Shown here piece by piece: positions 4,885 to 49,862 of a stretch of DNA of 64,000 nucleotides. Both the position numbers and the translations under genes were made by a program. Source of the DNA: Escherichia phage Ec_MI-02; sequence record OP856590.1. The stretch is one strand, 5' to 3'. Position 1 is the stretch's first letter, and each line of letters starts with the position of its first letter. The notes beneath the pieces were generated by a model. It saw only the letters and a list, made by a program, of their open reading frames with translations. It did no database searches and was not told where the DNA came from.

Positions 4885-5522
4885 TGAATGAACCCCAATT
4901 ACTAATTGAAACTTGGGGTCAACCTGGCGAAATTATTGATGGTGTGCCAATGCTTGAATCTCATGATGGAAAAGACCTAGGTTTAAAACCTGGTTTATAC
5001 ATCGAAGGAATATTCATGCAAGCGGAAGTCGTCAATAGAAATAAACGTCTTTATCCAAAACGCATATTAGAAAAAGCGGTAAAAGACTATATCAATGAGC
5101 AAGTTTTAACTAAACAAGCTCTCGGAGAATTAAATCATCCTCCACGCGCTAATGTTGACCCGATGCAAGCCGCTATCATTATAGAAGATATGTGGTGGAA
5201 AGGAAATGACGTATACGGACGAGCTCGTGTTATTGAAGGTGACCATGGTCCTGGAGATAAATTAGCAGCTAATATTCGTGCCGGATGGATTCCAGGAGTT
5301 TCTTCTCGTGGATTAGGTTCATTGACTGACACAAATAAAGGTTATCGTATCGTAAACGAAGGATTCAAATTAACTGTAGGTGTTGATGCAGTATGGGGTC
5401 CAAGTGCTCCAGATGCATGGGTAACTCCTAAGGAAATTACCGAATCACAGACGGCGGAAGCCGATACAAGTGCCGATGACGCCTATATGGCTCTCGCAGA
5501 GGCCATGAAAAAAGCGTTATAA
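4884..5522 (+). CDS. 21: Prohead core scaffold protease gp21
   Basis: 212-aa ORF (T4 gp21 length); synteny between 68 and 22. Confidence 0.85.
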   Translation: MNEPQLLIETWGQPGEIIDGVPMLESHDGKDLGLKPGLYIEGIFMQAEVVNRNKRLYPKRILEKAVKDYINEQVLTKQALGELNHPPRANVDPMQAAIIIEDMWWKGNDVYGRARVIEGDHGPGDKLAANIRAGWIPGVSSRGLGSLTDTNKGYRIVNEGFKLTVGVDAVWGPSAPDAWVTPKEITESQTAEADTSADDAYMALAEAMKKAL

Positions 5523-5525
5523 ATA
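5518..5525 (+). promoter_or_regulatory. Late promoter TATAAATA upstream of gene 22
   Basis: Exact motif overlapping gene 21 stop. Confidence 0.6.
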
Positions 5526-5552
5526 TTATTATCTAAACAACAGGACTACAAA

Positions 5553-6362
5553 ATGCTTAAAGAACAACTGATTGCTGAAGCGCAAAAAATTGATGCTTCC
5601 GTTGCTCTTGATAGTATTTTCGAATCAGTTAATATTTCTCCGGAAGCAAAAGAAACTTTCGGCACTGTATTCGAAGCTACCGTCAAGCAGCACGCCGTTA
5701 AATTAGCTGAATCTCATATCGCTAAAATTGCTGAAAAAGCAGAAGAAGAAGTAGAAAAAAATAAAGAAGAAGCCGAAGAAAAAGCTGAGAAGAAAATTGC
5801 TGAGCAAGCTTCTAAATTCATCGACCATCTTGCAAAAGAATGGCTCGCTGAAAATAAATTAGCAGTTGATAAAGGCATCAAAGCCGAACTGTTTGAATCC
5901 ATGCTAGGTGGATTAAAAGAGCTCTTTGTTGAACACAACGTTGTTGTTCCAGAAGAATCAGTTGATGTTGTAGCTGAAATGGAAGAAGAGCTGCAAGAAC
6001 ATAAAGAAGAATCAGCTCGTCTGTTCGAAGAACTCAATATGCGCGACGCATATATCAATTATGTGCAGCGTGAAGTGGCATTGAGCGAAAGTACTAAAGA
6101 TCTGACTGAGTCTCAAAAAGAAAAAGTCTCTGCTCTGGTCGAAGGTATGGATTATTCAGATGCATTCTCAAGTAAATTGAGTGCCATCGTAGAAATGGTG
6201 AAGAAGTCTAATAAAGATGAAAGCACTATTACTGAGGGTATAAATACTCCTGATACTGAAGCAGCCGGACTGAATTTCGTCACTGAAGCTGTAGAAGATA
6301 AAGCTGCACCTGGTGCAGAAGATATTGTAAGTGTATATGCGAAAGTCGCATCTCGTTTCTAA
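5553..6362 (+). CDS. 22: Prohead scaffolding protein gp22
   Basis: 269-aa ORF, E/K-rich, predicted helical; synteny; TATAAATA upstream. Confidence 0.85.
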   Translation: MLKEQLIAEAQKIDASVALDSIFESVNISPEAKETFGTVFEATVKQHAVKLAESHIAKIAEKAEEEVEKNKEEAEEKAEKKIAEQASKFIDHLAKEWLAENKLAVDKGIKAELFESMLGGLKELFVEHNVVVPEESVDVVAEMEEELQEHKEESARLFEELNMRDAYINYVQREVALSESTKDLTESQKEKVSALVEGMDYSDAFSSKLSAIVEMVKKSNKDESTITEGINTPDTEAAGLNFVTEAVEDKAAPGAEDIVSVYAKVASRF

Positions 6363-6380
6363 TTTTAAAGGTTAACACAA

Positions 6381-7946
6381 ATGACTATCAAAACTAAAGC
6401 TGAACTTTTGAACAAATGGAAGCCATTACTGGAAGGTGAAGGTTTACCGGAAATTGCTAATAGCAAACAAGCGATTATCGCTAAAATCTTTGAAAACCAG
6501 GAAAAAGATTTCCAGACAGCTCCAGAATATAAAGACGAAAAAATCGCTCAGGCGTTCGGTTCTTTCTTAACAGAAGCTGAAATCGGTGGTGACCACGGTT
6601 ACAACGCTACTAACATCGCTGCAGGTCAGACTTCTGGCGCAGTAACTCAGATTGGCCCAGCTGTTATGGGTATGGTACGTCGTGCTATTCCTAACCTGAT
6701 TGCTTTCGATATTTGCGGTGTTCAGCCGATGAACAGCCCGACTGGTCAGGTATTCGCACTGCGCGCAGTATATGGTAAAGACCCAATCGCTGCCGGCGCT
6801 AAAGAAGCATTCCACCCAATGTATGGTCCAGATGCAATGTTCTCTGGTCAGGGTGCTGCTAAGAAATTCACAGCTCTGGCTGCTAGCACACAAACCACAG
6901 TAGGTGATATCTATACTCACTTCTTCCAGGACACTGGTACTGTGTATCTGCAAGCTTCTGCTCAAGTAACAATTAGTGCAAGCGCAACTGACGCTGCTAA
7001 ATTAGATGCTGAAATTAAGAAACAAATGGAAGCTGGTGTACTGGTAGAAATCGCTGAAGGTATGGCTACTTCTATCGCTGAACTTCAGGAAGGTTTCAAC
7101 GGTTCTACCGATAACCCATGGAATGAAATGGGCTTCCGTATCGATAAACAAGTTATCGAAGCTAAATCTCGTCAGCTGAAAGCTGCTTACTCTATCGAAT
7201 TAGCACAAGACCTCCGCGCTGTTCACGGTATGGATGCTGATGCTGAACTGTCTGGTATTCTGGCTACCGAAATCATGCTGGAAATCAACCGCGAAGTTGT
7301 TGATTGGATTAACTACTCAGCTCAGGTTGGTAAATCTGGTATGACCCTGACTCCGGGTTCTAAAGCTGGTGTATTTGACTTCCAGGATCCGATTGATATT
7401 CGTGGTGCTCGCTGGGCGGGTGAATCCTTTAAAGCTCTGTTGTTCCAGATTGACAAAGAAGCAGTTGAAATTGCTCGTCAGACCGGTCGTGGTGAAGGTA
7501 ACTTCATTATCGCTTCCCGTAACGTAGTTAACGTTCTGGCTTCAGTTGATACTGGCATTTCTTATGCTGCACAGGGTCTGGCTACCGGCTTTAACACTGA
7601 TACTACCAAGTCAGTATTTGCTGGTGTTCTGGGTGGTAAATACCGTGTATATATCGACCAGTATGCTAAACAGGATTATTTCACTGTAGGTTATAAAGGT
7701 CCGAATGAAATGGATGCTGGTATTTACTACGCTCCATATGTAGCTCTGACTCCGCTGCGTGGTTCCGATCCGAAGAACTTCCAACCGGTAATGGGATTCA
7801 AAACTCGTTACGGTATCGGTATCAACCCATTTGCAGAATCCGCTGCTCAGGCTCCGGCTTCTCGCATCCAGAGCGGTATGCCTTCTATTCTGAATAGCCT
7901 TGGTAAAAACGCTTACTTCCGCCGTGTATATGTTAAAGGTATCTAA
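6381..7946 (+). CDS. 23: Major capsid protein gp23
   Basis: 521-aa ORF (T4 gp23 length), high-expression codon usage, strong terminator hairpin downstream. Confidence 0.95.
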   Translation: MTIKTKAELLNKWKPLLEGEGLPEIANSKQAIIAKIFENQEKDFQTAPEYKDEKIAQAFGSFLTEAEIGGDHGYNATNIAAGQTSGAVTQIGPAVMGMVRRAIPNLIAFDICGVQPMNSPTGQVFALRAVYGKDPIAAGAKEAFHPMYGPDAMFSGQGAAKKFTALAASTQTTVGDIYTHFFQDTGTVYLQASAQVTISASATDAAKLDAEIKKQMEAGVLVEIAEGMATSIAELQEGFNGSTDNPWNEMGFRIDKQVIEAKSRQLKAAYSIELAQDLRAVHGMDADAELSGILATEIMLEINREVVDWINYSAQVGKSGMTLTPGSKAGVFDFQDPIDIRGARWAGESFKALLFQIDKEAVEIARQTGRGEGNFIIASRNVVNVLASVDTGISYAAQGLATGFNTDTTKSVFAGVLGGKYRVYIDQYAKQDYFTVGYKGPNEMDAGIYYAPYVALTPLRGSDPKNFQPVMGFKTRYGIGINPFAESAAQAPASRIQSGMPSILNSLGKNAYFRRVYVKGI

Positions 7947-23213: not shown

Positions 23214-25271
23214 CTACATCTTGAACTTTTTAGACATTCCGTTGATGTTAACCAAAGAAGCCAAGATTTGAGAAACTTCGTTTTCCTCTTCTTTTGATTC
23301 TTCTACAAGGAATTGATTAAACCCAGCCATTGGACGAACTTCACCAGTTTCCATTAGATGATCGCCATCATATACCGATTCTTCTAATTGTTCAGAAGGA
23401 GGAACGATTGTGCCTTCGATTAGATACTTATTATAAGCAGTTTCTTTCATCATGTACGTGCTCACTTTATTAATCTTCAGCAAAATTCCACGCGGTAAAA
23501 TAACTTCAGCTTCTGATGGAAATCCTGATAAATGACCTGGAACGATAACTTTGATTCGCTCAGCCCCTTTAATTACCATACCTACGCTAGTTTCAGCATC
23601 TTCATTAGCATATGCAGAATGACTACCCATATGCATTAAATCTTCAGCATCAACAGAACCTTCTCCTTCACCAGAAAATACTGCGCCGGAATCATCTAGA
23701 GCCATATAGTTTTTACCATGCTCACCGAAGATATTTGGTTTAAGCGATGTTGATACGAAGTTCTTGAAATAGAACATTTTATTTTCAATATTATGACGTA
23801 AAGTTTTAAAAGTAACTTCTTGTCCACGATAAAGCGTAGTTCCCGGAGGAAGAACTGATCCTTTGGCAAAGGCAGAATCCATTGTCTCGATGTGTTTAAT
23901 AGCTCGTTCCATGTATTCTTCACGGGTAGAATCTGGTTTACCCAAGAGGAACGAGTTCATTTCAACATATGAATCTGCACAATAATCTTCGATTACATCA
24001 GACTCAGCCTGAGTCAGTCCTTTTGGAGTTACTTCGGTGCTTGCATATTCATATGCCTGAGCAGCAGATTCATTAATCAATTTATAAATGCCATTCATGA
24101 CAAATTGAATAATAGCTACCTTTTCGTCTGGTGTGGCTTTAGAACCTTTAACTAAATCATTGATAATTTTCTTAATAACATCAAAGCTATTAGAAATATT
24201 AATGTCAGCGAGATCGCTCAAAATTTTATCGGTTTTATAATCAAAAAATTCTTTATTCTTTAAATATTCTTGAGAACCTTGATGTGTTATATCGCTCTGC
24301 AGTCTGATAGACGGATCACGTAAACGTGCATGGGCCAATGCAATATGATTTCGGAAGCTTTCTAGTTCATAATCGCTAGATTTAAAACGAGAAGCACTTC
24401 TCATACCACCGATAGCTCCTTTTCCGAAGTTTGAACCAATCTGAATAACACCAGAGTTCATTGGTCCTTCTGCTTTATATACCGGAACTTTAGATTCAAA
24501 CTCTTGATATTTCTTGGCAGCGAAGCTATCACCCTGAAGCGAAGCATCTACAGTAGAATATTGAGCTTGTGCTGCCAATCGACGACTAATTTTAGTTTTC
24601 TGAATAACAGCTTGATCCGTGCGCTTATCATTTTCTAAAGCAATAGAAGCAGCAACAGCAACAGCTTTAGGAACAGCATTACCTGTTTTAACATCTACAT
24701 AAACATCACCAACCTTTGATTCAACTTTTGTGAATAACTCAGTTGAAATAGGAGGTACACCTGGAATGTCTTCTAAATTGGCATTTTTACGGTAAACCAT
24801 AATATATGCATACTTTTTATCATAATCCCAGATTTCCTTTAAAAGAACATATCGACCTGCTCCTTTAGTACGTACTAAACGGTCAGCAATAACTTGCATT
24901 TGACGAGCAGCTCCATTTGTTTTACTTTTTAGTACGCGGAATAGGCATGCGTCAATTTTATACTGTTTCATTGTTTGAAGAGCAGTATCAAAAACCGCAT
25001 TAATGACACCAATTGGATTTCCACCCAAGTTTTTAAGTTTAACTAATGATAGTTTCTCATTAACACCTATCATTACGATATGCATCATTTTATCGCCTGG
25101 CTTAACGTTTTTATTTGTATCACCACCAGAGGTGTATGTACAAAATCTAAATCCAGGAAGCACACTTTCTTCGCCGGCTTGAATAGCAAAAATTTGAGGT
25201 ATTTTATGCTTAGGATTTAAGTTAACAATCGGCGCCGAAGCGCCGTCAAATAATTCTGTAATAAGTTCCAT
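23214..25271 (-). CDS. Alt-like ADP-ribosyltransferase paralog, full length
   Basis: 685-aa ORF; N-terminal ~230 aa close to Alt incl. MELITE; C-terminal R (TLYRGQ), STS (FVSTSL) and ExE (EAEVILPRG) motifs. Confidence 0.75.
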   Translation of the reverse strand: MELITELFDGASAPIVNLNPKHKIPQIFAIQAGEESVLPGFRFCTYTSGGDTNKNVKPGDKMMHIVMIGVNEKLSLVKLKNLGGNPIGVINAVFDTALQTMKQYKIDACLFRVLKSKTNGAARQMQVIADRLVRTKGAGRYVLLKEIWDYDKKYAYIMVYRKNANLEDIPGVPPISTELFTKVESKVGDVYVDVKTGNAVPKAVAVAASIALENDKRTDQAVIQKTKISRRLAAQAQYSTVDASLQGDSFAAKKYQEFESKVPVYKAEGPMNSGVIQIGSNFGKGAIGGMRSASRFKSSDYELESFRNHIALAHARLRDPSIRLQSDITHQGSQEYLKNKEFFDYKTDKILSDLADINISNSFDVIKKIINDLVKGSKATPDEKVAIIQFVMNGIYKLINESAAQAYEYASTEVTPKGLTQAESDVIEDYCADSYVEMNSFLLGKPDSTREEYMERAIKHIETMDSAFAKGSVLPPGTTLYRGQEVTFKTLRHNIENKMFYFKNFVSTSLKPNIFGEHGKNYMALDDSGAVFSGEGEGSVDAEDLMHMGSHSAYANEDAETSVGMVIKGAERIKVIVPGHLSGFPSEAEVILPRGILLKINKVSTYMMKETAYNKYLIEGTIVPPSEQLEESVYDGDHLMETGEVRPMAGFNQFLVEESKEEENEVSQILASLVNINGMSKKFKM

Positions 25272-25274
25272 GAT

Positions 25275-27329
25275 TTATCCTTGAACGAACTTGTAAGGCA
25301 TGTTTGCAATATCTATGCAAGATGCAATAATTCCAAGAGATGATTCTACTTTTTGTTTAACATTTGATGAAACAAATGATGCAAAATCAACTCTGTCTTC
25401 TATTTCAATATCACCTGTCATTGCAACTACTTCACCGGTTTCCATTAGACGGTCACCGTCATAAATTACTGATTCGGTGAGTTCTTCTGTAGTCATAACT
25501 TCAGCTTGAATAAGCTTGTTGTTAGTTTTAGCTGTTCCATCATTGTAAGATGCGTCGGTTATTTTATTGACTTTGACCATCAATCCACGCGGCAAAATGA
25601 CTTCCATTTCATTTGAAGGCGCTAAACTTCCACCTGGTAAAACAACGTTGACTTTATCAGCCCCAGTAATAACCCATCCAATTCCAACTAAATTATCGCT
25701 AGAATTAACAAGTCCTTCATCGTTTTTATCGATAGAAATGTTTAGACGCTTTTCGTCTGGTAAAACACCCACAGCTGAATCAGTCATCCAAGTACCAAAA
25801 ATGTTTGGATATAATGATGTTGATACAAAATTTCTAAAATAAAAAACTCGATTTTTTACCAATGCTTCATATATTGAAGGTAACATTCGCTGTGAACGAT
25901 ATAAAGTAATACCTTTTGGCAGTCGATCACCATTTTTAAAGGCTGAATCTAAATTATCGATGGCTTGTTCTATTTCTGGTGCTGTTAAAATACTTGTACG
26001 CTCATCTGGATTATATAATCCCAAAAGAGCATTATTCATGTCTACATATCCTGAACCTACGTATTCACGAATTCCGCGTTTTTGTGCCGGTGTGTATTTA
26101 GATGAATCTTTATTTTCGACTATAGAATGCAATGACCATCCAACGGTAAGAGCATATCCACGTAATTCTCTTCGAATAATCTTTGTTTTTATTGCATTCC
26201 AAGAATTTTGCACTAACTCATTCGCAGCATCTTGATTTAAATGCGAATGCTTGTTAATATTTCTTTCTAACCAAGCACCTTTATATTTTTCTAAAGTATC
26301 ATCAACTATAGAAGCAATAGTTTCTAAAGTTTTTATTGAAGTAATAGATTCTTTTCGTAATCTTTCTAAAGCTTTATTTTTTATTTCTGCATTAACATCA
26401 GATTCTTTATCTTCAGGAATTATAGAAGCTTCTCTGAATGCCATTCCAGCTGTAACACTATTAAGAGCATTCTCTAATGCAAATCCTGAAGTAGAAATAA
26501 CAGTTAATTCGTTAGCATCAGAAATTAAAGGCGCGTCAGCGGGTTTATTTAATTCTGCTGCTGAAGCCTCAAATTTTTGAAACATTGGTGTTTCAAATCT
26601 AGAAGATTCTAACGATTGACTTTGTGCAATTGCTCTACGGGAAATTTTAACTTTAACGATTACAGCTTGATCAGAACGTTTATCGTTTTCTTGCGCAATA
26701 GATGCTGCAATTGCCTCATTTTTAGTTACTTGAGCTCCAGTATCTTTATTGATATAAACATCACCGACCTTCGATTCAACTTTAGTAAAGAGCTCGGTAC
26801 TAATTTCCGGAACTCCTGGAATGTCTTCTAATGATACATTTTTGCGATGTATAAGAATATATGCGTACTTTTTATCGTAATCCCAGAGTTCCTTAAGAAG
26901 GACGTATCTGCCACCTGAACGACTGCGGATAAGTCTATCAGCAATAAGTTGAATTTGACGAGCTTGACCAGCAGTTTTAGACTTAAGAATACGGAGCATA
27001 CAGGCATCAATTTTATACTGACGCATCGTCTGCATCGCAACAGTAAAAACTGAATTGATGTAATTAATTGGGCTTGGACCGAGACCTTTTAATTTAGCAA
27101 TTGAACCTTTGGCAGTTAATGTAAAAGGAACAATATGCATCATTTTATCGCCCATCTTTAAATCGCGATTAGTATCACCTCCAGATGTATAAGTACATAA
27201 ACGAAAGCCTGGTTGTTCAATTGCGTCATCAACATGAACTGAAAAAATTTGCGGTATTTTCTTCTTTGGATTTAAGTTTGTAATCGGAAGAGTAGTATCT
27301 TCGTCAAATAATTCTGTAATAAGTTCCAT
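25275..27329 (-). CDS. alt: Alt ADP-ribosyltransferase (head-packaged, injected)
   Basis: Table ORF has two N-terminal ATGs; second (27327-27329) has better SD spacing; R/STS/ExE motifs (TLYRSQ, FVSTSL, EMEVILPRG); TATAAATA upstream. Confidence 0.85.
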   Translation of the reverse strand: MELITELFDEDTTLPITNLNPKKKIPQIFSVHVDDAIEQPGFRLCTYTSGGDTNRDLKMGDKMMHIVPFTLTAKGSIAKLKGLGPSPINYINSVFTVAMQTMRQYKIDACMLRILKSKTAGQARQIQLIADRLIRSRSGGRYVLLKELWDYDKKYAYILIHRKNVSLEDIPGVPEISTELFTKVESKVGDVYINKDTGAQVTKNEAIAASIAQENDKRSDQAVIVKVKISRRAIAQSQSLESSRFETPMFQKFEASAAELNKPADAPLISDANELTVISTSGFALENALNSVTAGMAFREASIIPEDKESDVNAEIKNKALERLRKESITSIKTLETIASIVDDTLEKYKGAWLERNINKHSHLNQDAANELVQNSWNAIKTKIIRRELRGYALTVGWSLHSIVENKDSSKYTPAQKRGIREYVGSGYVDMNNALLGLYNPDERTSILTAPEIEQAIDNLDSAFKNGDRLPKGITLYRSQRMLPSIYEALVKNRVFYFRNFVSTSLYPNIFGTWMTDSAVGVLPDEKRLNISIDKNDEGLVNSSDNLVGIGWVITGADKVNVVLPGGSLAPSNEMEVILPRGLMVKVNKITDASYNDGTAKTNNKLIQAEVMTTEELTESVIYDGDRLMETGEVVAMTGDIEIEDRVDFASFVSSNVKQKVESSLGIIASCIDIANMPYKFVQG

Positions 27330-27352
27330 CATATCCTCTCTAGTGTTTATTC

Positions 27353-27360
27353 TATTTATA
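27353..27360 (-). promoter_or_regulatory. Late promoter TATAAATA upstream of alt
   Basis: Reverse complement TATTTATA; 24 nt upstream of alt ATG. Confidence 0.55.
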
Positions 27361-27365
27361 AAATT

Positions 27366-27383
27366 AAAGGCCCGAAGGCCTTT
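27366..27383. terminator. Hairpin between ligase-proximal ORF and alt promoter
   Basis: AAAGGCC-CGAA-GGCCTTT. Confidence 0.45.
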
Positions 27384-27570
27384 AATAATCTATTGGTAAG
27401 AGAGTACGGTATATTTCAAACTTTGGACCTTTTTCATAGGCATCAAATGTTTCTGTGAATTTATTATAAGCATATGCATCTATAAATTCAATCATAATTT
27501 GTGATACAGAAGTAGAAACATCTCCACCTTCTTTTTGAGCCACGACAATTGTTTCTAAATAAGCTTTCAT
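27382..27570 (-). CDS. Hypothetical small protein between ligase and alt
   Basis: 62-aa ORF, ATGA overlap with ligase stop. Confidence 0.5.
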   Translation of the reverse strand: MKAYLETIVVAQKEGGDVSTSVSQIMIEFIDAYAYNKFTETFDAYEKGPKFEIYRTLLPIDY

Positions 27571-29030
27571 AGACCAGTTACCTCATGAAAATCACCAAAT
27601 ACATCCTCGAATGTATTAGCTTTAGTTTTATCTTCACGTAAACGAATCGCAATTGGAAGAAATAATTTAACGTAATCGGTGCGGCCATCAGATTTTAACC
27701 AACCATTACATTCGCATTCTAGAATTTTTCCAATATAATAATTTTGGTTTTCCATAATGCGAGTACGGTCAAGTTCATGCGATTTTACACCGGCTTTATC
27801 TTTTAAACCTGAACCAGCATTTACTTTAATTTTTCCACATTCTGATTCAAGAATAAATCCACCCGCTTTAGTAGGGTCTTTACGGTGAGGATAAATTCCT
27901 ACAATTTTTAAATCAACATCAATTACTTCTTTAAATTTATAGAGATTTTTTGAACGAGCATTTTCCCATAATCCATCGATATTTTTGAGAATAATACCTT
28001 CAAGACCTTGGTCAATATACTTTTTATAAATTACCTTAGCTTCATCTAGGTTATTTACTATCTGGTTTTCAATTAAAATTACTTTATCATATCCTGATGT
28101 CATTTGTTCTAGTTTAGAAAAACGTACATCATATTTTAAACGAAACGCTGGAAGACCGTATATTTCTACCAACGGGACATAATCCCAGACCTGAAACTTC
28201 ATGCATTGAGCTTCTTTTTCAGAAATGGTTCCCTTTAAAGATTTATTGGCGATTCCATTAGAAGTAGTACGAGATTCCGCTACTTCGGCGAATTCTTTAG
28301 CTTTACTAATTTCAGGATAAGCATCAAAAAGAAAATCTAGGCCTTCTGGTTCCTTTTTAACTTGCTCATGGTATACCAATTCGCCATCAATTAACACACC
28401 TTCTGGATGAATCTGGCGGGCTTCAGCAGTCATTTTGATTAATTCTTCCTTAAGAAGATCTAATCCTAGATATTCATTACCAGCTCGTGATAAAAGACGA
28501 ACATCATCTAATTCATCGCCTCGGACTTCAGCAAAACACCGGGCTCCATCTGCTTTTAACTGTGCAAAGGCTGGAAATTTGATATTCTTACTAATGCCTT
28601 TTTCATCATAAGAACTTGCCAGCATTTGAGGTTGTTCAGGAATTAAACCTGGCCAAACTTTGTTTGCAATAGATACTGAAGCACCGCATTCAAGGTCTCG
28701 CATCATCACTCGACGCAAAACTTCAACATCATCCTTTTTACCATCAGTGATATATCCAGTTAATTCCTCAATTGCCGCATTTCCAGTCAATTTCCGAGTA
28801 GCTAACGTGAATTCAATGAAGTCAAGCATATCGGTAATAGTCAGCATTCCAAAACTCTGGGTAGCAATACCAGGCTTAGGCCATTTCTTGATATAATACT
28901 GTAACCCACGAGAATAAGTCAGACGATATACTCGTTTAAGCAATTCGTTATCTTTATTCTTTTCAAGAATTGCTTGCTTCTGCTTAGTTGATCCAATAGA
29001 TGCTATTTCATTCAGAATTTTAAGAATCAT
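27567..29030 (-). CDS. 30: ATP-dependent DNA ligase
   Basis: 487-aa ORF (T4 ligase length); adenylation motif KADGAR; N-terminus MILKILNEIASIGSTKQKQ. Confidence 0.95.
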   Translation of the reverse strand: MILKILNEIASIGSTKQKQAILEKNKDNELLKRVYRLTYSRGLQYYIKKWPKPGIATQSFGMLTITDMLDFIEFTLATRKLTGNAAIEELTGYITDGKKDDVEVLRRVMMRDLECGASVSIANKVWPGLIPEQPQMLASSYDEKGISKNIKFPAFAQLKADGARCFAEVRGDELDDVRLLSRAGNEYLGLDLLKEELIKMTAEARQIHPEGVLIDGELVYHEQVKKEPEGLDFLFDAYPEISKAKEFAEVAESRTTSNGIANKSLKGTISEKEAQCMKFQVWDYVPLVEIYGLPAFRLKYDVRFSKLEQMTSGYDKVILIENQIVNNLDEAKVIYKKYIDQGLEGIILKNIDGLWENARSKNLYKFKEVIDVDLKIVGIYPHRKDPTKAGGFILESECGKIKVNAGSGLKDKAGVKSHELDRTRIMENQNYYIGKILECECNGWLKSDGRTDYVKLFLPIAIRLREDKTKANTFEDVFGDFHEVTGL

Positions 29031-29296
29031 TGTTCATCCTTCAGAGTTTGATTTACATTTCTATTATAAATCAATTCATCATTAAGCTCAGGCAAAGACT
29101 TGTGATATGTAGTTCTAACTTTATTTCCTTGCATCCAGTGCTTGACGTAAATGAAACCTTGCTCTACACATTTTTTAAAAATTCGTTCGTCTTTTTGAGC
29201 TCGGAATTCTGGATTGCATCTAAAAAATTGATTTACGTGACCGTAATCACGTGTAGTATTACCTTCATTTTCATAAATAGTATGAACAACAAACAT
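29027..29296 (-). CDS. 30.1: Hypothetical protein (T4 30.1 position)
   Basis: 89-aa ORF, ATGA/TAATG coupling on both sides. Confidence 0.55.
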   Translation of the reverse strand: MFVVHTIYENEGNTTRDYGHVNQFFRCNPEFRAQKDERIFKKCVEQGFIYVKHWMQGNKVRTTYHKSLPELNDELIYNRNVNQTLKDEQ

Positions 29297-30135
29297 TAGA
29301 ATGCTCCTTGGAAAATATTATCACCACAAGTAGGTCTATTATACAAATACTCTATACCACCAGGTTTAATATAGTTCCATGTCTGAAATGGATGTGTCTG
29401 ATATGGATGATATAGATGATTATAAGGATTAAATCCAGGCGTTCTCCAGGTAGTGTTCCAAGGAAAAGAATCGTTTTTAACCATCTTCTCAATTAAATCT
29501 TTTATAGCTTTTTCACTATCAAAACTTTCTTTATTTTCCTTTGGTGAAAAAAGCTTATTTTCTATATCATTCCATGTATAAACTCGCTGGGCAGTTTTTG
29601 GAATATTGTCACGCTCTCCTCGAGCCATCCAATACACAGGAACATTTAATATTTCACTCGCATGATCGCAATGGTGAGCGAGATCGTCAATATAACAAAT
29701 TACGCTATATTTCTCTTTTGCCTTTTTGAACAACTCTTCTTTTGAAGAATCATGAACACACATCATTACTTCTGAGAAGGCACCAGGAAAAAGAGCATTC
29801 AAATTAAATTGACGATTCAACAGAGCGTCAATAGAATCACCCAATGCTGTGACAGCTACAAAATTATAATCTTCTTTTAATTTGTTAATTACACACAGGG
29901 CATCTTTATATGGAGACAAGTAACGAATAAAATCTGATCGATTGTATTTTTCAATTAGCTTGACACCGAGTTCTTCATCACAATTAAAGAGTTTACCCGG
30001 AGAAATAAATTTCTCATCTTGGATCATTTTTAAAATATGTTCTAACGGAAGATTATATTTCTGAGCAAAATAAGGAAGGCCTGATTGCCAGCTTAAACAT
30101 ACTCCATCAATATCAGTTAAAATAGTAGGCTTCAT
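29296..30135 (-). CDS. 30.2: HAD-like hydrolase-fold protein (T4 30.2 position)
   Basis: 279-aa ORF; N-terminal LTDIDGV matches HAD motif I (DxDx[TV]). Confidence 0.7.
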   Translation of the reverse strand: MKPTILTDIDGVCLSWQSGLPYFAQKYNLPLEHILKMIQDEKFISPGKLFNCDEELGVKLIEKYNRSDFIRYLSPYKDALCVINKLKEDYNFVAVTALGDSIDALLNRQFNLNALFPGAFSEVMMCVHDSSKEELFKKAKEKYSVICYIDDLAHHCDHASEILNVPVYWMARGERDNIPKTAQRVYTWNDIENKLFSPKENKESFDSEKAIKDLIEKMVKNDSFPWNTTWRTPGFNPYNHLYHPYQTHPFQTWNYIKPGGIEYLYNRPTCGDNIFQGAF

Positions 30136-30590
30136 AGAGAGTCTCTTAATAGGTTTAACACATCAATAAATTCAGCTTCGGTTAATATTGTATCATCTTT
30201 TGTTAGACCATTAGCCATGCTGTGCTTCAAAACTTTTCCTTTCGAGGCTTGTAATGCATCACGAAAGCCCTTGTTTTGGAACGCTGCTTCAAAATATGCA
30301 TTTGTATATAATTCTTTCCACGCTGGAGAGTATCTTGAAAACGGAACTCCAAGCCAGAAGAGGGTCCCACGGTCCTGAGCTCTAGCATAAGACCTTCCAG
30401 CTTGTTGGGCGGCAAGCCCGGATAACCCAAATATACGACGTTGTTGTTCAATATTTTTCACCTTACACCCTTGGAGGAATCCTTCGAGACCTCCAAATTG
30501 GATACCATCCATAACAAAAGGCCATTGGGCGAAATTACTTAATGCGCATGATGGCCATCTAAAATTGCTTCTAATCTCTAACTCAGACAT
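30132..30590 (-). CDS. 30.3: NADAR/YbiA-like (DUF1768) protein (T4 30.3 position)
   Basis: Table ORF starts at TTG; ATG 30588-30590 gives 152 aa; motif CALSNFAQWPFVMDG resembles the NADAR signature. Confidence 0.65.
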   Translation of the reverse strand: MSELEIRSNFRWPSCALSNFAQWPFVMDGIQFGGLEGFLQGCKVKNIEQQRRIFGLSGLAAQQAGRSYARAQDRGTLFWLGVPFSRYSPAWKELYTNAYFEAAFQNKGFRDALQASKGKVLKHSMANGLTKDDTILTEAEFIDVLNLLRDSL

Positions 30591-30789
30591 TTTCAATACT
30601 TATAATTTCAACATCAGCCCAATGACCATAGCAAGGAAGACGAAATTCAACTGGCCAGTTAGGGTCCTTTTCTAATATAATAGACTGTACTTGTGGCTCT
30701 TCATATTCATCGGTATACGGACCTTTATACGTTACTTTATATGTGACCTTAATGTACTGAATTCCAAAAATCTTATTAATTATATTCAT
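30583..30789 (-). CDS. 30.4: Hypothetical protein (30.4 position)
   Basis: 68-aa ORF, 8-nt overlap with 30.3 start. Confidence 0.5.
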   Translation of the reverse strand: MNIINKIFGIQYIKVTYKVTYKGPYTDEYEEPQVQSIILEKDPNWPVEFRLPCYGHWADVEIISIENV

Positions 30790-30983
30790 ACTAATTCCTT
30801 TAATCCGTAAATAGGAGATAATTCATCGCCCATACGAAGGTCTTCATTTCCATCTACCCAGGAAACAATATAAGCCTCTTTTATTTGAATACCACTCCAT
30901 TTAAATGGAGGTAGAACCTTAGAAATTAATCCAGGTATACCAACTCCCTTTAATTCAACAGTTTGACCTAAAAAGAATTTCAT
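30786..30983 (-). CDS. 30.5: Hypothetical protein (30.5 position)
   Basis: 65-aa ORF, ATGA-type overlap. Confidence 0.5.
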   Translation of the reverse strand: MKFFLGQTVELKGVGIPGLISKVLPPFKWSGIQIKEAYIVSWVDGNEDLRMGDELSPIYGLKELV

Positions 30984-31270
30984 TAGAACCTCATCTGAAA
31001 GCCATGCGATTTAACATTACCGCCGCCAATATCAGAAATATTAATTTCACGCGCAATTGAAGGGTCAATGTCAATTTCACGATTGAGTTTAGTGATAGCT
31101 AAAGTATCGCGCCCATTTACAGTACGGAACTCTAAAGGACATACTACATTAACGTAGTTTTTAATCGATTCGCTGGTAGGTTGCAAATGAGCAGGAAGGT
31201 CTTTAGGCGCTTTAGAGAAAACCACTTCACAGAAATTTTTGCGGGTGTCAAAATAAGTAGTCATAAACAT
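30983..31270 (-). CDS. 30.6: Hypothetical protein (30.6 position)
   Basis: Table ORF 112 aa from 31321, but a GC hairpin lies inside that extension; ATG 31268-31270 after GAGGAAAA gives 95 aa. Confidence 0.5.
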   Translation of the reverse strand: MFMTTYFDTRKNFCEVVFSKAPKDLPAHLQPTSESIKNYVNVVCPLEFRTVNGRDTLAITKLNREIDIDPSIAREINISDIGGGNVKSHGFQMRF

Positions 31271-31310
31271 AGTATTTTCCTCAGTAAGGGGCCGAAGCCC
31301 CTGTTTTATT

Positions 31311-31676
31311 TTAAATATCAAATTCGTTAAGAACTACATCAAAGATTGCTTCAAGATGCTCAGGTTTAGCTCTGTTACTCAGAATATGACGAATCCAAGT
31401 TTTAACCAGAAGCTTGCGATTAACGCCATTCCAGCAAGGATGAGTCCCTAAATCGCGTTGACGAAAATCATCATCCAAAGCGATTTTGAAGTTGGAACCT
31501 TCCATTGTGATTGAAACCGTGATGCCATTTTCAAATCGCATATAAACGTAGTTAGGAGTCATATACTGTTCAATTTCGCATACTGATCCATTTTGATGTT
31601 TCCAAAGGCAAATAGTATCAATAGAACCTGCAATACCGTTAGAAACATATTTACGTTCAAAGTTGATGTAGTTCAT
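31311..31676 (-). CDS. 30.7: Hypothetical protein (30.7 position)
   Basis: 121-aa ORF; early promoter in inverted repeat upstream. Confidence 0.55.
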   Translation of the reverse strand: MNYINFERKYVSNGIAGSIDTICLWKHQNGSVCEIEQYMTPNYVYMRFENGITVSITMEGSNFKIALDDDFRQRDLGTHPCWNGVNRKLLVKTWIRHILSNRAKPEHLEAIFDVVLNEFDI

Positions 31677-31702
31677 TTTTATTCTCCGAGATGTTTAATT
31701 GC

Positions 31703-31742
31703 GGTACAGGTATATAATATCATATCCTGTACCAAAGTAAAC
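31703..31742 (-). promoter_or_regulatory. Early promoter for 30.7 embedded in 8-bp inverted repeat
   Basis: On - strand GTTTAC-17 nt-TATTAT with TG extension; GGTACAGG 31703-31710 / CCTGTACC 31726-31733 flank the -10. Confidence 0.5.
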
Positions 31743-31744
31743 AA

Positions 31745-32077
31745 TTATTTTACTACTTTCCAGTGCTGCATGTCAAGTTTACCAACTTTTTTCATCTTCT
31801 CAATTAAGCGTTCTGCGCGTTGGCGAGCTGTAACATAATGCCATTCACCTAATTCATTTTGTTCAATTTTTCCAACGATTACTGTATTCAATTCATAAAT
31901 CCAACCAGTAAAGAAATTATGAACTTGAATTGTAAAGGTGAAATCTGTTCCCATACCTTCTGTTGTTTCTACTTCAATAATATCACCTTCAACTGCCATT
32001 AAGAACCACATAGTTTCATCATATTTACCATTGAAGCATTTAGTTTTAACTGTAGCGTTCAGATTAATCGTTTTCAT
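31745..32077 (-). CDS. 30.8: Hypothetical protein (30.8 position)
   Basis: 110-aa ORF, SD AAGGAG, GTTTAC-type promoter upstream. Confidence 0.55.
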   Translation of the reverse strand: MKTINLNATVKTKCFNGKYDETMWFLMAVEGDIIEVETTEGMGTDFTFTIQVHNFFTGWIYELNTVIVGKIEQNELGEWHYVTARQRAERLIEKMKKVGKLDMQHWKVVK

Positions 32078-48629: not shown

Positions 48630-49280
48630 ATACTTGCAAGATTTCACAGTTTCAATGAAAACACTTTTAGCTTTCTGCGAATCAATATTTAAAATTTTTC
48701 TATAAGCCTTTAACTTTATAGAATAATTATTCCAGACTAAATTATCAGTCTGTTCATCATGTTTATCAATTATATTTAAAAACGAATCAAGCAAGATAAA
48801 CGTCTCAAACGAAATTATATTCGATTGAAGTAGTTTAAAAATATAACTTGATTGAACTTTTGGATTATACTCAAAGATTTCTTTAAAAGCAGAAACTTCA
48901 ACTTTTTTACTAAAATAATAAATGTTGCGAATATCTTCTTCAAACTTAAATTTAATTTGCTTTAAGCGTCCGATATATTCACGATAAAACACAAGTGCAT
49001 CAGCGTCAGAGATGTCACCAATCCAAGCATCTTGGTTAGCAACCAGATTGCTTATAAAGATTAAAGCAAGTTCCTTTAATTTATATTTTTCTGATAACTT
49101 CTGGAAAAAATACTTATCCCTTCGCTTTTGATAAGCGGCATCAGACACCCGCATGCACCAATTATACTTAATTACATCATACTTTCCATTCATATGCTGT
49201 TTTATCATTAAGTATAATTTATAAACTGATTTACCATCAATATATCTTTCACCACCAGCAGGCATGCGGAGTTTAATCAT
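48627..49280 (-). CDS. 59: gp59 helicase loader
   Basis: 217-aa ORF (T4 gp59 length); synteny. Confidence 0.85.
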   Translation of the reverse strand: MIKLRMPAGGERYIDGKSVYKLYLMIKQHMNGKYDVIKYNWCMRVSDAAYQKRRDKYFFQKLSEKYKLKELALIFISNLVANQDAWIGDISDADALVFYREYIGRLKQIKFKFEEDIRNIYYFSKKVEVSAFKEIFEYNPKVQSSYIFKLLQSNIISFETFILLDSFLNIIDKHDEQTDNLVWNNYSIKLKAYRKILNIDSQKAKSVFIETVKSCKY

Positions 49281-49615
49281 AGTAGAAAATCTAATGTATT
49301 AGTTTTTTCACAACGAACAACAGAAGGACGTAAAAGATTTTCGTCAATAGCTTCTGACTGAATTTTTTCAATTATACCCGAAGGAATAAATTTAGCAAAT
49401 TGAGTTTCAGGAATAGAATTTTCTTCTAAGAATGCTGTTGTAGCTTCAAGATAACTCATTCCAAACTCTTCTACCATTTTTTCAATAATAAATCCATTTT
49501 CTTGACGATCAAGAAGCTTTGCAATTTCATCCTTTTCTTTCTTAATTGAAAGTTCTTTTTCTGAAAGACCGGTCTCATCGACCGGACGAATATCATTTAG
49601 AGAAAACTGTGTCAT
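49277..49615 (-). CDS. 33: gp33 late transcription co-activator
   Basis: Table ORF starts TTG; ATG 49613-49615 gives 112 aa starting MTQFSLNDIRPVDETG. Confidence 0.8.
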   Translation of the reverse strand: MTQFSLNDIRPVDETGLSEKELSIKKEKDEIAKLLDRQENGFIIEKMVEEFGMSYLEATTAFLEENSIPETQFAKFIPSGIIEKIQSEAIDENLLRPSVVRCEKTNTLDFLL

Positions 49616-49862
49616 AAAGTTCAACTACCTCTTCAGTTTCAGCTTCAAACACATCACGGTTATCTTTATGATACAAAGCTAACAGACGATTAAACATCTT
49701 GCCATCAACGCCAAGTTCATCTTTGGCACGAATTCGAATATCTTTAATCAATTCATTATAACCAGAAATTTTCAGTTTATGATCAGATGCTTCTTTAATA
49801 AATTTAGCCAAATCTTCGCCATGGATAGCTTCATCAAATTCAACCATTTCTTTTTTAGCCAT
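49593..49862 (-). CDS. dsbA: DsbA double-stranded DNA-binding protein
   Basis: 89-aa ORF overlapping start of gene 33 as in T4. Confidence 0.75.
   Translation of the reverse strand: MAKKEMVEFDEAIHGEDLAKFIKEASDHKLKISGYNELIKDIRIRAKDELGVDGKMFNRLLALYHKDNRDVFEAETEEVVELYDTVFSK

Follow-up and report, generated by a model that had tools for sequence, protein, structure and literature searches.

Gene 30.3 of phage T4 was renamed adfN in 2025. Its product, AdfN, is a DNA ADP-ribosylglycohydrolase of the NADAR type, and resistance to DarTG1 both requires this enzyme and needs no other (Johannesman et al., Nat Commun 2025, PMC11825919). Experiments in vitro and in vivo have demonstrated that the T4 enzyme takes ADP-ribose off guanine, and that loss of adfN has a phenotype on DarTG1 specifically (PMC11825919). 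Provided in trans, adfN alone restores plaquing of RB69, whose own inactive allele codes for a truncated protein that has lost the C-terminal helix, and full activity of AdfN requires a further T-even factor (PMC11825919). Uninfected cells are not rescued from DarT1 by AdfN. In a transposon sequencing screen of T4 on DarTG1, exactly two genes were significant, namely 30.3 (log2FC -7.25, padj 0) and 30.4 (log2FC -1.79, padj 0.014) (HIDEN-SEQ Data S6). [quoted passage not shown] Few enzymatic phage counter-defences are known, and AdfN is one of them.

Here, we analysed a stretch of 64,000 nucleotides from Escherichia phage Ec_MI-02 (OP856590.1), referred to as the window, in which two neighbouring open reading frames had been described as a NADAR-like and HAD-like pair. 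The surrounding 5-kb region shares 97-98% identity with many Tequatrovirus genomes in a sequence search, and the two reading frames are genuine minus-strand genes of a Tequatrovirus (T4-like) genome, corresponding to T4 genes 30.3 and 30.2. That they are not chance open reading frames follows from their matches to PF08010 (30.3) and phrog_420 (30.2). Gene 30.3, or adfN, occupies positions 30132..30590 on the minus strand; the open reading frame 30132..30596 starts with TTG, and the ATG at 30590 yields the 152-aa protein that is annotated in T4. Gene 30.2 (29296..30135, minus strand) codes for a 279-aa protein with the N-terminus MKPTILTDIDGV. Both belong to a minus-strand run of T4-type early genes, 30.4-30.3-30.2-30.1-30, as neighbours in a compact series of overlapping genes. 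Gene 30.4 (30583..30789, minus strand, 68 aa, phrog_2042) lies directly upstream of adfN and its end runs 8 nt into the adfN start. As read in the sequence, the stop codon of 30.3 overlaps the start codon of 30.2 in an ATGA (30132..30135, minus strand), which makes translational coupling possible, and a TAATG likewise holds the stop of 30.2 and the start of 30.1. Gene 30.1 (29027..29296, minus strand; DUF3045, PF11243, E 4.5e-62) is located between 30.2 and gene 30, which codes for an ATP-dependent DNA ligase (27567..29030, minus strand; PF01068, E 3e-32). Two Alt-type ADP-ribosyltransferase genes (25275-27332 and 23214-25271; 685 aa each, PF03496) are found at distances of approximately 2 and 4 kb from 30.2, and the DNA ligase gene lies in between. 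Scans for promoters and terminators returned signals at chance level only.

The protein encoded by 30.3 belongs to the NADAR superfamily, and within it to the phage (gp30.3/AdfN) family. It matches the Pfam family PF08010 (Phage_30_3) with 231.7 bits (cutoff 36, E 2.8e-69), and the alignment spans the entire profile (positions 1-138 of 138). Over its full length it shares 97% identity with T4 gp30.3, from which it differs by a few conservative substitutions. The segments CALSNFAQWPFVMDG, GLEGFLQGCKV and GLAAQQAGRS, in which the preliminary description had noted a resemblance to the NADAR signature, are present exactly as read. E36 and K43 sit in GLEGFLQGCK and do not vary among 9-10 homologues, the most distant of which has 40% identity; H123 is likewise invariant and is located in a predicted strand (120-124) that corresponds to the last-strand catalytic position. 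The C-terminus is complete: the protein ends with LLRDSL like that of T4, and a helix is predicted for residues 138-151. The AF2 model (pLDDT 82, pTM 0.79) has the NADAR fold, a helical core with small beta hairpins, and resembles the three solved NADAR structures, with 2b3w, 8bau and 8bat as the top three Foldseek matches in the PDB and the sole matches at a probability of at least 0.9. The general NADAR profile PF08719 did not match the window protein at E<=1 in a Pfam search, and a fused homologue of 30.3 reached 19.7 bits, below the cutoff of 35.1. The link between 30.3 and NADAR proteins therefore rests on the fold together with a weak profile match to YbiA, the best PDB hit of the 30.3 profile (E 0.057), which covers the SNFAxWP...E..Q..K segment. 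Searches of the PDB with the single sequences of 30.3 and 30.2 yielded noise only, so that profiles were needed.

Because of the 97% identity to the T4 protein and the conserved catalytic residues, we infer that the window AdfN is a DarTG1 counter-defence enzyme that removes ADP-ribose from DNA. During infection, it would cleave the N-glycosidic bond by which the host DarT1 attaches ADP-ribose to guanine in phage DNA, and this removal would allow phage replication to continue. The expectation that a NADAR protein counters a DarT toxin is borne out by experiments on the T4 protein (PMC11825919; HIDEN-SEQ Data S6). The identity of AdfN and its counter-defence role are already known from T4; the window adds an intact adfN allele in another Tequatrovirus, which is of value for annotation and adds no new biology.

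The protein encoded by 30.2 matches phrog_420 (E 5e-92) and has no Pfam or NCBIfam match at E<=1. Matches of 30.2 homologues to PF00702, PF13419 and PF06941 are mostly below threshold as well. All four HAD motifs can nevertheless be assigned on the window protein. Motif I, D8-I-D10-G-V12, follows strand 4-7 and retains the DxDGV pattern noted earlier, with D8 and D10 invariant in 42 sequences. Motif II (T96) is found at the end of strand 91-96, motif III (K132) just ahead of helix 133-142 and motif IV (D150-D151) at the end of strand 145-150; every residue of motifs II-IV shows conservation of at least 90% or does not vary at all, and motifs I-IV are kept across the 42 homologues. A confident predicted model displays the secondary-structure order of HAD proteins and a Rossmann-like HAD fold with a cap, in agreement with the HAD assignment made from motif I. 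Residues about 1-195 form the core with a helical C1 cap, which is large in the model (helices 16-86), and a variable tail follows at about 200-279; this tail is mostly of low confidence in the model and probably disordered. Judged by its complete set of catalytic motifs and the modelled fold, gp30.2 belongs to the HAD superfamily. Its core would be a phosphatase, probably of the NT5C-like type.

Several comparisons point to nucleotide phosphatases as the probable closest relatives of gp30.2. The top PDB match of its profile is the deoxyribonucleotidase 2jao, with which it shares DxDGVxxx[W/F]xSGL in the alignment, and a broader family profile matches the nucleotide phosphatases 3nuq, 3onn and 3bwv. 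Among Pfam families, NT5C collects the largest number of members (20/73), and hhalign of the gp30.2 family against a bona fide NT5C domain gave a probability of 88.9% (E 2.4e-6). This similarity to NT5C-type 5'(3')-deoxyribonucleotidases suggests a small nucleotide-like phosphomonoester as the most likely substrate. We propose that gp30.2 is a separate C1-capped HAD phosphomonoesterase, with Mg2+ dependence assumed from the superfamily. The family comprises 1358 cluster representatives at E<=1e-3 and is present across T4-like phages (Straboviridae). Eight longer members were scanned for fusions, and only one of them had generic sub-threshold HAD matches. Literature searches for gp30.2 retrieved nothing relevant.

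The tail of gp30.2 carries the sequence IEYLY, which resembles a sliding-clamp-binding motif; for comparison, T4 gp43 ends with SLDFLFG, T4 gp55 with SLDFLYEAND and the window gp33 with TLDFLL. The pattern fits one tail class only and about 0.3 such open reading frames per window are expected by chance, as a rough estimate from residue frequencies, so that we regard this motif as a weak lead.

We consider it likely that 30.3 codes for AdfN and that 30.2 codes for a separate, ligase-linked HAD phosphatase, which is not required for counter-defence against DarTG1. In T4, disruption of 30.2 by transposons is neutral on DarTG1 (log2FC -0.12, p 0.61, 71 sites; HIDEN-SEQ Data S6), in an assay that covers one DarTG1 system under laboratory conditions and would miss a redundant or auxiliary role, and 72/72 TA sites of the gene are insertable (HIDEN-SEQ). 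Across genomes, 30.2 is most stably associated with the DNA ligase gene rather than with adfN. The ligase gene is located downstream on the same strand in 69/75 30.2-anchored loci, and is adjacent even where the order is inverted, whereas 30.3 lies upstream of 30.2 in 36 of the 77 loci. Conversely, 30.2 is missing within 5 kb in 10/28 30.3 loci, and in some genomes the two genes are approximately 55 kb or more apart. The earlier proposal of a joint anti-DarT module is not sustained by these data, given that adfN alone complements, while the more general idea of an ADP-ribose-processing pair draws support from domain fusions.

Such fusions were found in proteins associated with Bacteroidales: in 120/120 of them, the best 120 of 1345 matches, a NADAR domain of the gp30.3 type and an NT5C-type HAD domain form one protein, and in 16 of these 120 a KptA/Tpt1 domain is also present, KptA being an NAD-dependent 2'-phosphotransferase. 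In both contexts that were examined, the fusion gene is part of an RNA-ligase repair cluster. In two loci the fusion gene is next to an ADP-ribosylglycohydrolase gene, accompanied in one of them (L113) by PARG, and a third locus contains further NADAR genes. The fusions independently support a functional link between NADAR and HAD proteins, and a general pairing of the two for ADP-ribose processing is conceivable. One might speculate that a phage-type NADAR and an NT5C-like HAD form an old recurrent unit attached to polynucleotide ligases, fused in Bacteroidales-associated sequences and present in T4-like phages as two genes, 30.3 and 30.2, next to that for DNA ligase, with gp30.2 as the second step in the reversal of ADP-ribose damage. 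Under this speculation, which we regard as on balance unlikely, gp30.2 would clear ADP-ribose-derived or ADP-ribosylated nucleotides and be dispensable in the single laboratory DarTG1 assay.

A more direct cooperation, in which 30.3 and 30.2 are a true two-enzyme ADP-ribose-processing unit, appears rather improbable to us. The NADAR protein would release ADP-ribose or act on ADP-ribosylated nucleotides, and the HAD protein would dephosphorylate a product; candidates are ADP-ribose-1''-phosphate, ADP-ribosyl-dGMP and, following cleavage by a Nudix enzyme, AMP or ribose-5-phosphate. Such a unit would agree with the proposal that ADP-ribose set free by glycohydrolases is handled by phosphatases, among them a HAD 5'-nucleotidase (Iyer et al., 2022), and it is favoured by the ATGA overlap, by the many T4-like loci with 30.3 directly upstream of 30.2, by the fusions with their ADP-ribosylglycohydrolase and NADAR neighbours, and by the homology of the fused HAD domain with the gp30.2 family. 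However, this domain shares only about 20% identity with gp30.2 and the two are therefore not clearly orthologous; the neutral 30.2 insertions, the restoration of RB69 by adfN alone and the frequent separation of the genes also argue against the unit. Since AdfN requires an additional T-even factor, the phosphatase might even be the factor that potentiates it, but the neutrality of T4 30.2 insertions on DarTG1 makes gp30.2 an unlikely candidate. As for 30.4, an iterative search found none beside distant 30.3 genes beyond close relatives. The fusions and the ATGA overlap nevertheless speak for a possible functional coupling of the two activities; under our preferred reading of two separate enzymes, any cooperation, such as the disposal of ADP-ribose-derived or ADP-ribosylated nucleotides, is unproven and would be auxiliary.

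The remaining explanations fare worse. That the NADAR protein reverses or tunes ADP-ribosylation by the phage's own Alt transferases 2-4 kb away, as a writer/eraser pair, is very improbable. The genes are close together, a placement that the preliminary description called conspicuous, but Alt modifies arginine in host proteins, as is well established. T4 AdfN acts on guanine-linked ADP-ribose, reported NADAR activities are on ADP-ribosylated bases and not on proteins, with specificity for modified guanosine, and NADAR genes are found in loci without an adjacent alt gene. The idea is further contradicted by the DarTG1-specific phenotype of adfN and by alt insertions in T4, which are neutral on DarTG1 (log2FC -0.01; HIDEN-SEQ Data S6). 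We give almost no credence to damage control of riboflavin intermediates by a YbiA-like N-glycosidase and a YigB/YbjI-type HAD phosphatase. E. coli YbiA is the structure that the 30.3 model matches best, and one database source labels a 30.2 homologue 'FMN phosphatase YigB', but phage NADARs have a histidine at the defining glutamate of the YbiA family, AdfN clusters nearest to DarG1 NADARs, the 30.2 profile matches nucleotidases and not riboflavin-pathway phosphatases, and DNA de-ADP-ribosylation has been assigned by experiment (PMC11825919).

Taken together, gp30.2 emerges as an enzyme that is conserved, has kept its catalytic motifs and is persistently linked to DNA ligase, and the widespread NADAR-NT5C(-KptA) fusions suggest that a phosphatase step is often paired with the removal of ADP-ribose from nucleic acids. 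If this pairing or 30.4 were to explain why AdfN is fully active in T-even infections only, the question of the AdfN authors would be answered.

Among known systems, the 3'-phosphatase domain of T4 Pnkp (1ltq, 5uj0) is a HAD enzyme that acts on polynucleotide ends and has no cap, in contrast to gp30.2 with its large C1 cap. A C1 cap in HAD enzymes usually goes along with small-molecule substrates. The NT5C deoxyribonucleotidases (cdN/mdN 2jao, 2i7d and 1q92; S. epidermidis 3bwv) are about 15-20% identical to gp30.2, which falls below the Pfam thresholds and possesses an extra tail of 80 residues. The Bacteroidales fusions combine the same enzyme types in the same order, NADAR and then HAD, with the phage-type histidine and in ligase-centred clusters. 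They differ in being one polypeptide, in some cases with an N-terminal KptA/Tpt1 domain, instead of two genes; their HAD domain is a canonical NT5C with a shorter cap than gp30.2, and their clusters contain RNA ligases with PNK-like kinases, in contrast to the DNA ligase of the phage. E. coli YbiA (2b3w), although the best structural match of 30.3 (Foldseek E 7.4e-4, TM 0.62/0.57), has its defining glutamate replaced by histidine in AdfN and is a housekeeping protein of riboflavin metabolism, whereas AdfN serves counter-defence. The DarG1 NADAR antitoxins (E. coli C7; Geobacter lovleyi, 8bat) have the same fold and likewise remove guanine-linked ADP-ribose; unlike them, AdfN lacks an N-terminal extension, has histidine instead of aspartate at the last-strand catalytic position, is not encoded beside a DarT gene and does not rescue uninfected cells. 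Closest of all is T4 AdfN itself, which is 97% identical over the same 152 residues and encoded at the same place between 30.4 and 30.2, with E36, K43, H123 and the C-terminal helix all present in the window copy; whereas T4 has one alt gene and remnants, the window phage carries two full-length alt paralogues.

The two genes of the preliminary description, 30.3 (30132-30590, minus strand, 152 aa) and 30.2 (29296-30135, minus strand, 279 aa) in T4 nomenclature, are real and conserved genes judging by their profile matches, to the Pfam family PF08010 (Phage_30_3; 231.7 bits) and to phrog_420 (E 5e-92), respectively, and every peptide string quoted for them was found in ORFs of the window. The minus-strand gene order is that of phage T4, namely alt, alt.1, 30 (DNA ligase), 30.1, 30.2, 30.3, 30.4 and onward, and in a nucleotide search many Tequatrovirus genomes, among them those of the Shigella phages ESh16 and Sf24, matched positions 27000-32000 at 97-98% identity; 492 records span 80% or more of this region. 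Within the window sequence, ATGA is common to the 30.3 stop and the 30.2 start, TAATG is common to the 30.2 stop and the 30.1 start, which overlap by one base, and gene 30.4 (30583-30789, minus strand) overlaps the start of 30.3 by 8 nt. A 74-aa ORF in another frame inside 30.3 (30227-30451, minus strand) corresponds to the annotated, putative internal gene 30.3' of T4.

Gene 30.3 is adfN, and its NADAR and anti-DarT function has already been published. Resistance of T2 and T4 to the bacterial defence system DarTG1 was mapped to gene 30.3, which was renamed adfN (Johannesman et al., Nat Commun 2025, PMC11825919). T4 and T2 need the gene for resistance, for RB69 it suffices when supplied in trans, AdfN takes ADP-ribose off DarT1-modified DNA in vitro, and its function is lowered by E36A, K43A or a 15-residue C-terminal truncation resembling the natural RB69 allele (PMC11825919). 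The 30.3 protein of the window is full length and 97% identical to T4 gp30.3, and residues E36, K43 and H123 are invariant across homologues down to 40% identity. In the AlphaFold model (pLDDT 82), H123 is located within the last strand, and the best three PDB matches of this model are the three solved NADAR structures, YbiA (2b3w), a Phytophthora NADAR (8bau) and Geobacter DarG1 (8bat); YbiA is also the best PDB match of the family profile (E 0.057, over the segment SNFAxWP...E..Q..K). The Pfam match, retained residues and fold bear out the assignment of 30.3 as a NADAR gene, and the experiments on T4 AdfN support the statement that NADAR proteins counter DarT toxins (PMC11825919). During T4 infection, replication is blocked once DarT1 has attached ADP-ribose to guanine of the phage DNA, and it resumes when AdfN hydrolyses the adduct; based on identity, residues and fold, the allele in the window would act in the same way. 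The preliminary observation is confirmed and its interpretation largely right, its core being already in print. In the methods of PMC11125620 (Toxins 2024), the T4 gp30.3 construct is given as residues 1-208, although the gene product has 152 residues both in T4 and in the window, a discrepancy that probably stems from numbering or a tag.

The product of 30.2, which had been described as HAD-like from its first motif, has no match in Pfam or NCBIfam. No variation is seen among 42 homologues (34-75% identity) at D8 and D10 (motif I, DxDGV), K132 (motif III) or D150-D151 (motif IV), and conservation of T96 (motif II) is 90% or higher. The AlphaFold core, residues 1-190, is very confident (block-mean pLDDT 93-98) and places the motifs as in HAD enzymes: motif I follows strand 1, motif II closes strand 2, motif III precedes the helix leading into strand 4, and motif IV ends that strand. 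Motifs I and II are separated by a helical cap (residues 16-86). Going by these motifs and the model, gp30.2 has the HAD fold and the full set of catalytic motifs of such enzymes. Several lines of sequence comparison suggest that it is nearest the NT5C nucleotidases: the best PDB match of its profile is mouse cytosolic 5'(3')-deoxyribonucleotidase (E 0.039; aligned signature DxDGVxxx(W/F)xSGL), a broader family profile matches the nucleotide phosphatases 3nuq, 3onn and 3bwv, and more members match NT5C than any other Pfam family (20/73, best E 4.2e-10). Going by its motifs and fold, gp30.2 would hydrolyse a phosphomonoester, D8 forming the aspartyl-phosphate intermediate and D10 serving as general acid/base, and the C1 cap and NT5C affinities suggest a small nucleotide-like substrate. 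Residues ~200-279 are variable in sequence and mostly modelled with low confidence. In the long forms of gp30.2, this tail (window 29296-29530, minus strand) is Pro/Trp-rich and ends in short conserved motifs that differ by clade, G[IVL]EY[LWY]xxxPT in the window and T4, and LRAYY or [DE]Y.LLN..AND in other clades. A weak likeness links the IEYLY core to the tails by which T4 gp43 (SLDFLFG), T4 gp55 (SLDFLYEAND) and window gp33 (TLDFLL; 49280-49624) bind the clamp. In P0034, a 302-aa protein of a homologue cluster, the 30.2 HAD core and a DUF3045 (30.1) domain share a single ORF; as 30.2 and 30.1 overlap by one base in the window, either a genuine fusion or a frameshift from sequencing may account for this.

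It had further been proposed that 30.3 and 30.2 act as an ADP-ribose-processing or anti-DarT pair. In the HIDEN-SEQ transposon screen of T4, comparing control with DarTG1 (bioRxiv 10.1101/2025.11.20.689424, Data S6), exactly two genes were significant, 30.3 (log2FC -7.25) and 30.4 (log2FC -1.79, padj 0.014), while 30.2 was neutral (log2FC -0.12, p 0.61, 71 sites) and, with insertions at 72/72 sites, non-essential. According to the AdfN authors, who postulate a further phage factor, the enzyme is fully active only in T-even infections. In view of the T4 genetic data, gp30.2 is unlikely to be this factor. Gene 30.4 could be, and its homologues are found upstream of 30.3 only in phages with an AdfN at least 75% identical; in main-text passages of the screen paper, adfN alone is named (10.1101/2025.11.20.689424). 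Due to the 8-nt overlap with the adfN start, polarity or translational coupling is the simple explanation for the 30.4 signal, against which can be set the DarTG2 screen, where the hit tk.4 scored -2.64 and tk.3, its predecessor in the gene list, had no such effect (-0.03).

Gene linkage, which counts against a pair, ties 30.2 to the ligase. In IMG/VR loci anchored on 30.2 or 30.3, which are not independent samples, DNA ligase is downstream on the same strand in 69/75 30.2-anchored loci, 30.3 is upstream in only 36/77, and 30.2 is absent within 5 kb in 10/28 30.3-anchored loci. In distant T4-like contigs (L115, L116, L109-L111), a 30.2-like HAD gene lies within a few hundred bases of DNA ligase even with the order reversed, which points to selection for linkage beyond inherited synteny alone. 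In two other loci (L025, L027), the NADAR gene (4977-5471) directly abuts the ligase gene (5446-6954); their flanks contain no convincing 30.2-like gene, with one marginal match (E 0.002) in L025.

In favour of a pair, a gp30.3-type NADAR is joined to an NT5C domain within a single protein in two viral contigs (L030, 4914-5969; L031, 3478-4440; PF08010 and PF06941 at 39-55 bits against a cutoff of 24.8). A protein search with such a fusion gave 1345 matches, one cluster alone having 950 member sequences, and all of the best 120 (P0265-P0384) carry both domains, 16 of them also KptA/Tpt1 (PF01885); where a source is named, it is a Bacteroidaceae or Prevotellaceae assembly. In the fusions the NADAR part retains the phage-type His, and 101 of 102 distinct fused HAD domains keep both motif-I aspartates. 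Profile comparison indicates homology between the NT5C domain of the fusions and the gp30.2 family (88.9% probability by hhalign, E 2.4e-6, 145 columns, ~20% identity). An ADP-ribosylglycohydrolase gene adjoins the fusion in L031 and L113. The loci L113 and L114 are RNA-repair clusters with an RNA ligase, a PNK-like HD+AAA_33 kinase and a methyltransferase. In L113 there are also PARG and a regulator of the Nudix type, and L114 has a regulator of the WYL type plus two additional NADAR genes. We found no discussion of the NADAR-NT5C(-KptA) architecture in the literature searched; according to a proposal by Iyer et al. (2022), ADP-ribose set free by glycohydrolases would be acted on by phosphatases, among them a HAD 5'-nucleotidase. 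The NADAR-HAD-ligase association is seen too frequently to be set aside. We consider a true functional coupling of 30.2 with ADP-ribose processing improbable. What remains of interest is the ligase-linked HAD enzyme gp30.2, the NADAR-NT5C(-KptA) fusions and 30.4 as the second gene of the transposon screen.

The closeness of 30.3 to ADP-ribosyltransferase genes, which had seemed conspicuous, is real but reflects the conserved T4 gene order. The substrate of Alt is arginine in host proteins; for the T4 NADAR, removal of base-linked ADP-ribose is reported. With a log2FC of -0.01 in the T4 screen, alt is irrelevant to DarTG1 fitness (10.1101/2025.11.20.689424). Whereas T4 possesses one alt gene and, as remnants, alt.-1 and alt.-2, which its annotation ascribes to an old partial duplication, the window contains two full-length 685-aa paralogues in tandem on the minus strand (PF03496; 23214-25271, E 3.2e-20, and 25275-27332, E 4.7e-34). 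The gp30.3 proteins, earlier classed as "phage NADARs", have a His at the position taken by Glu in the YbiA family and by Asp in DarG1.
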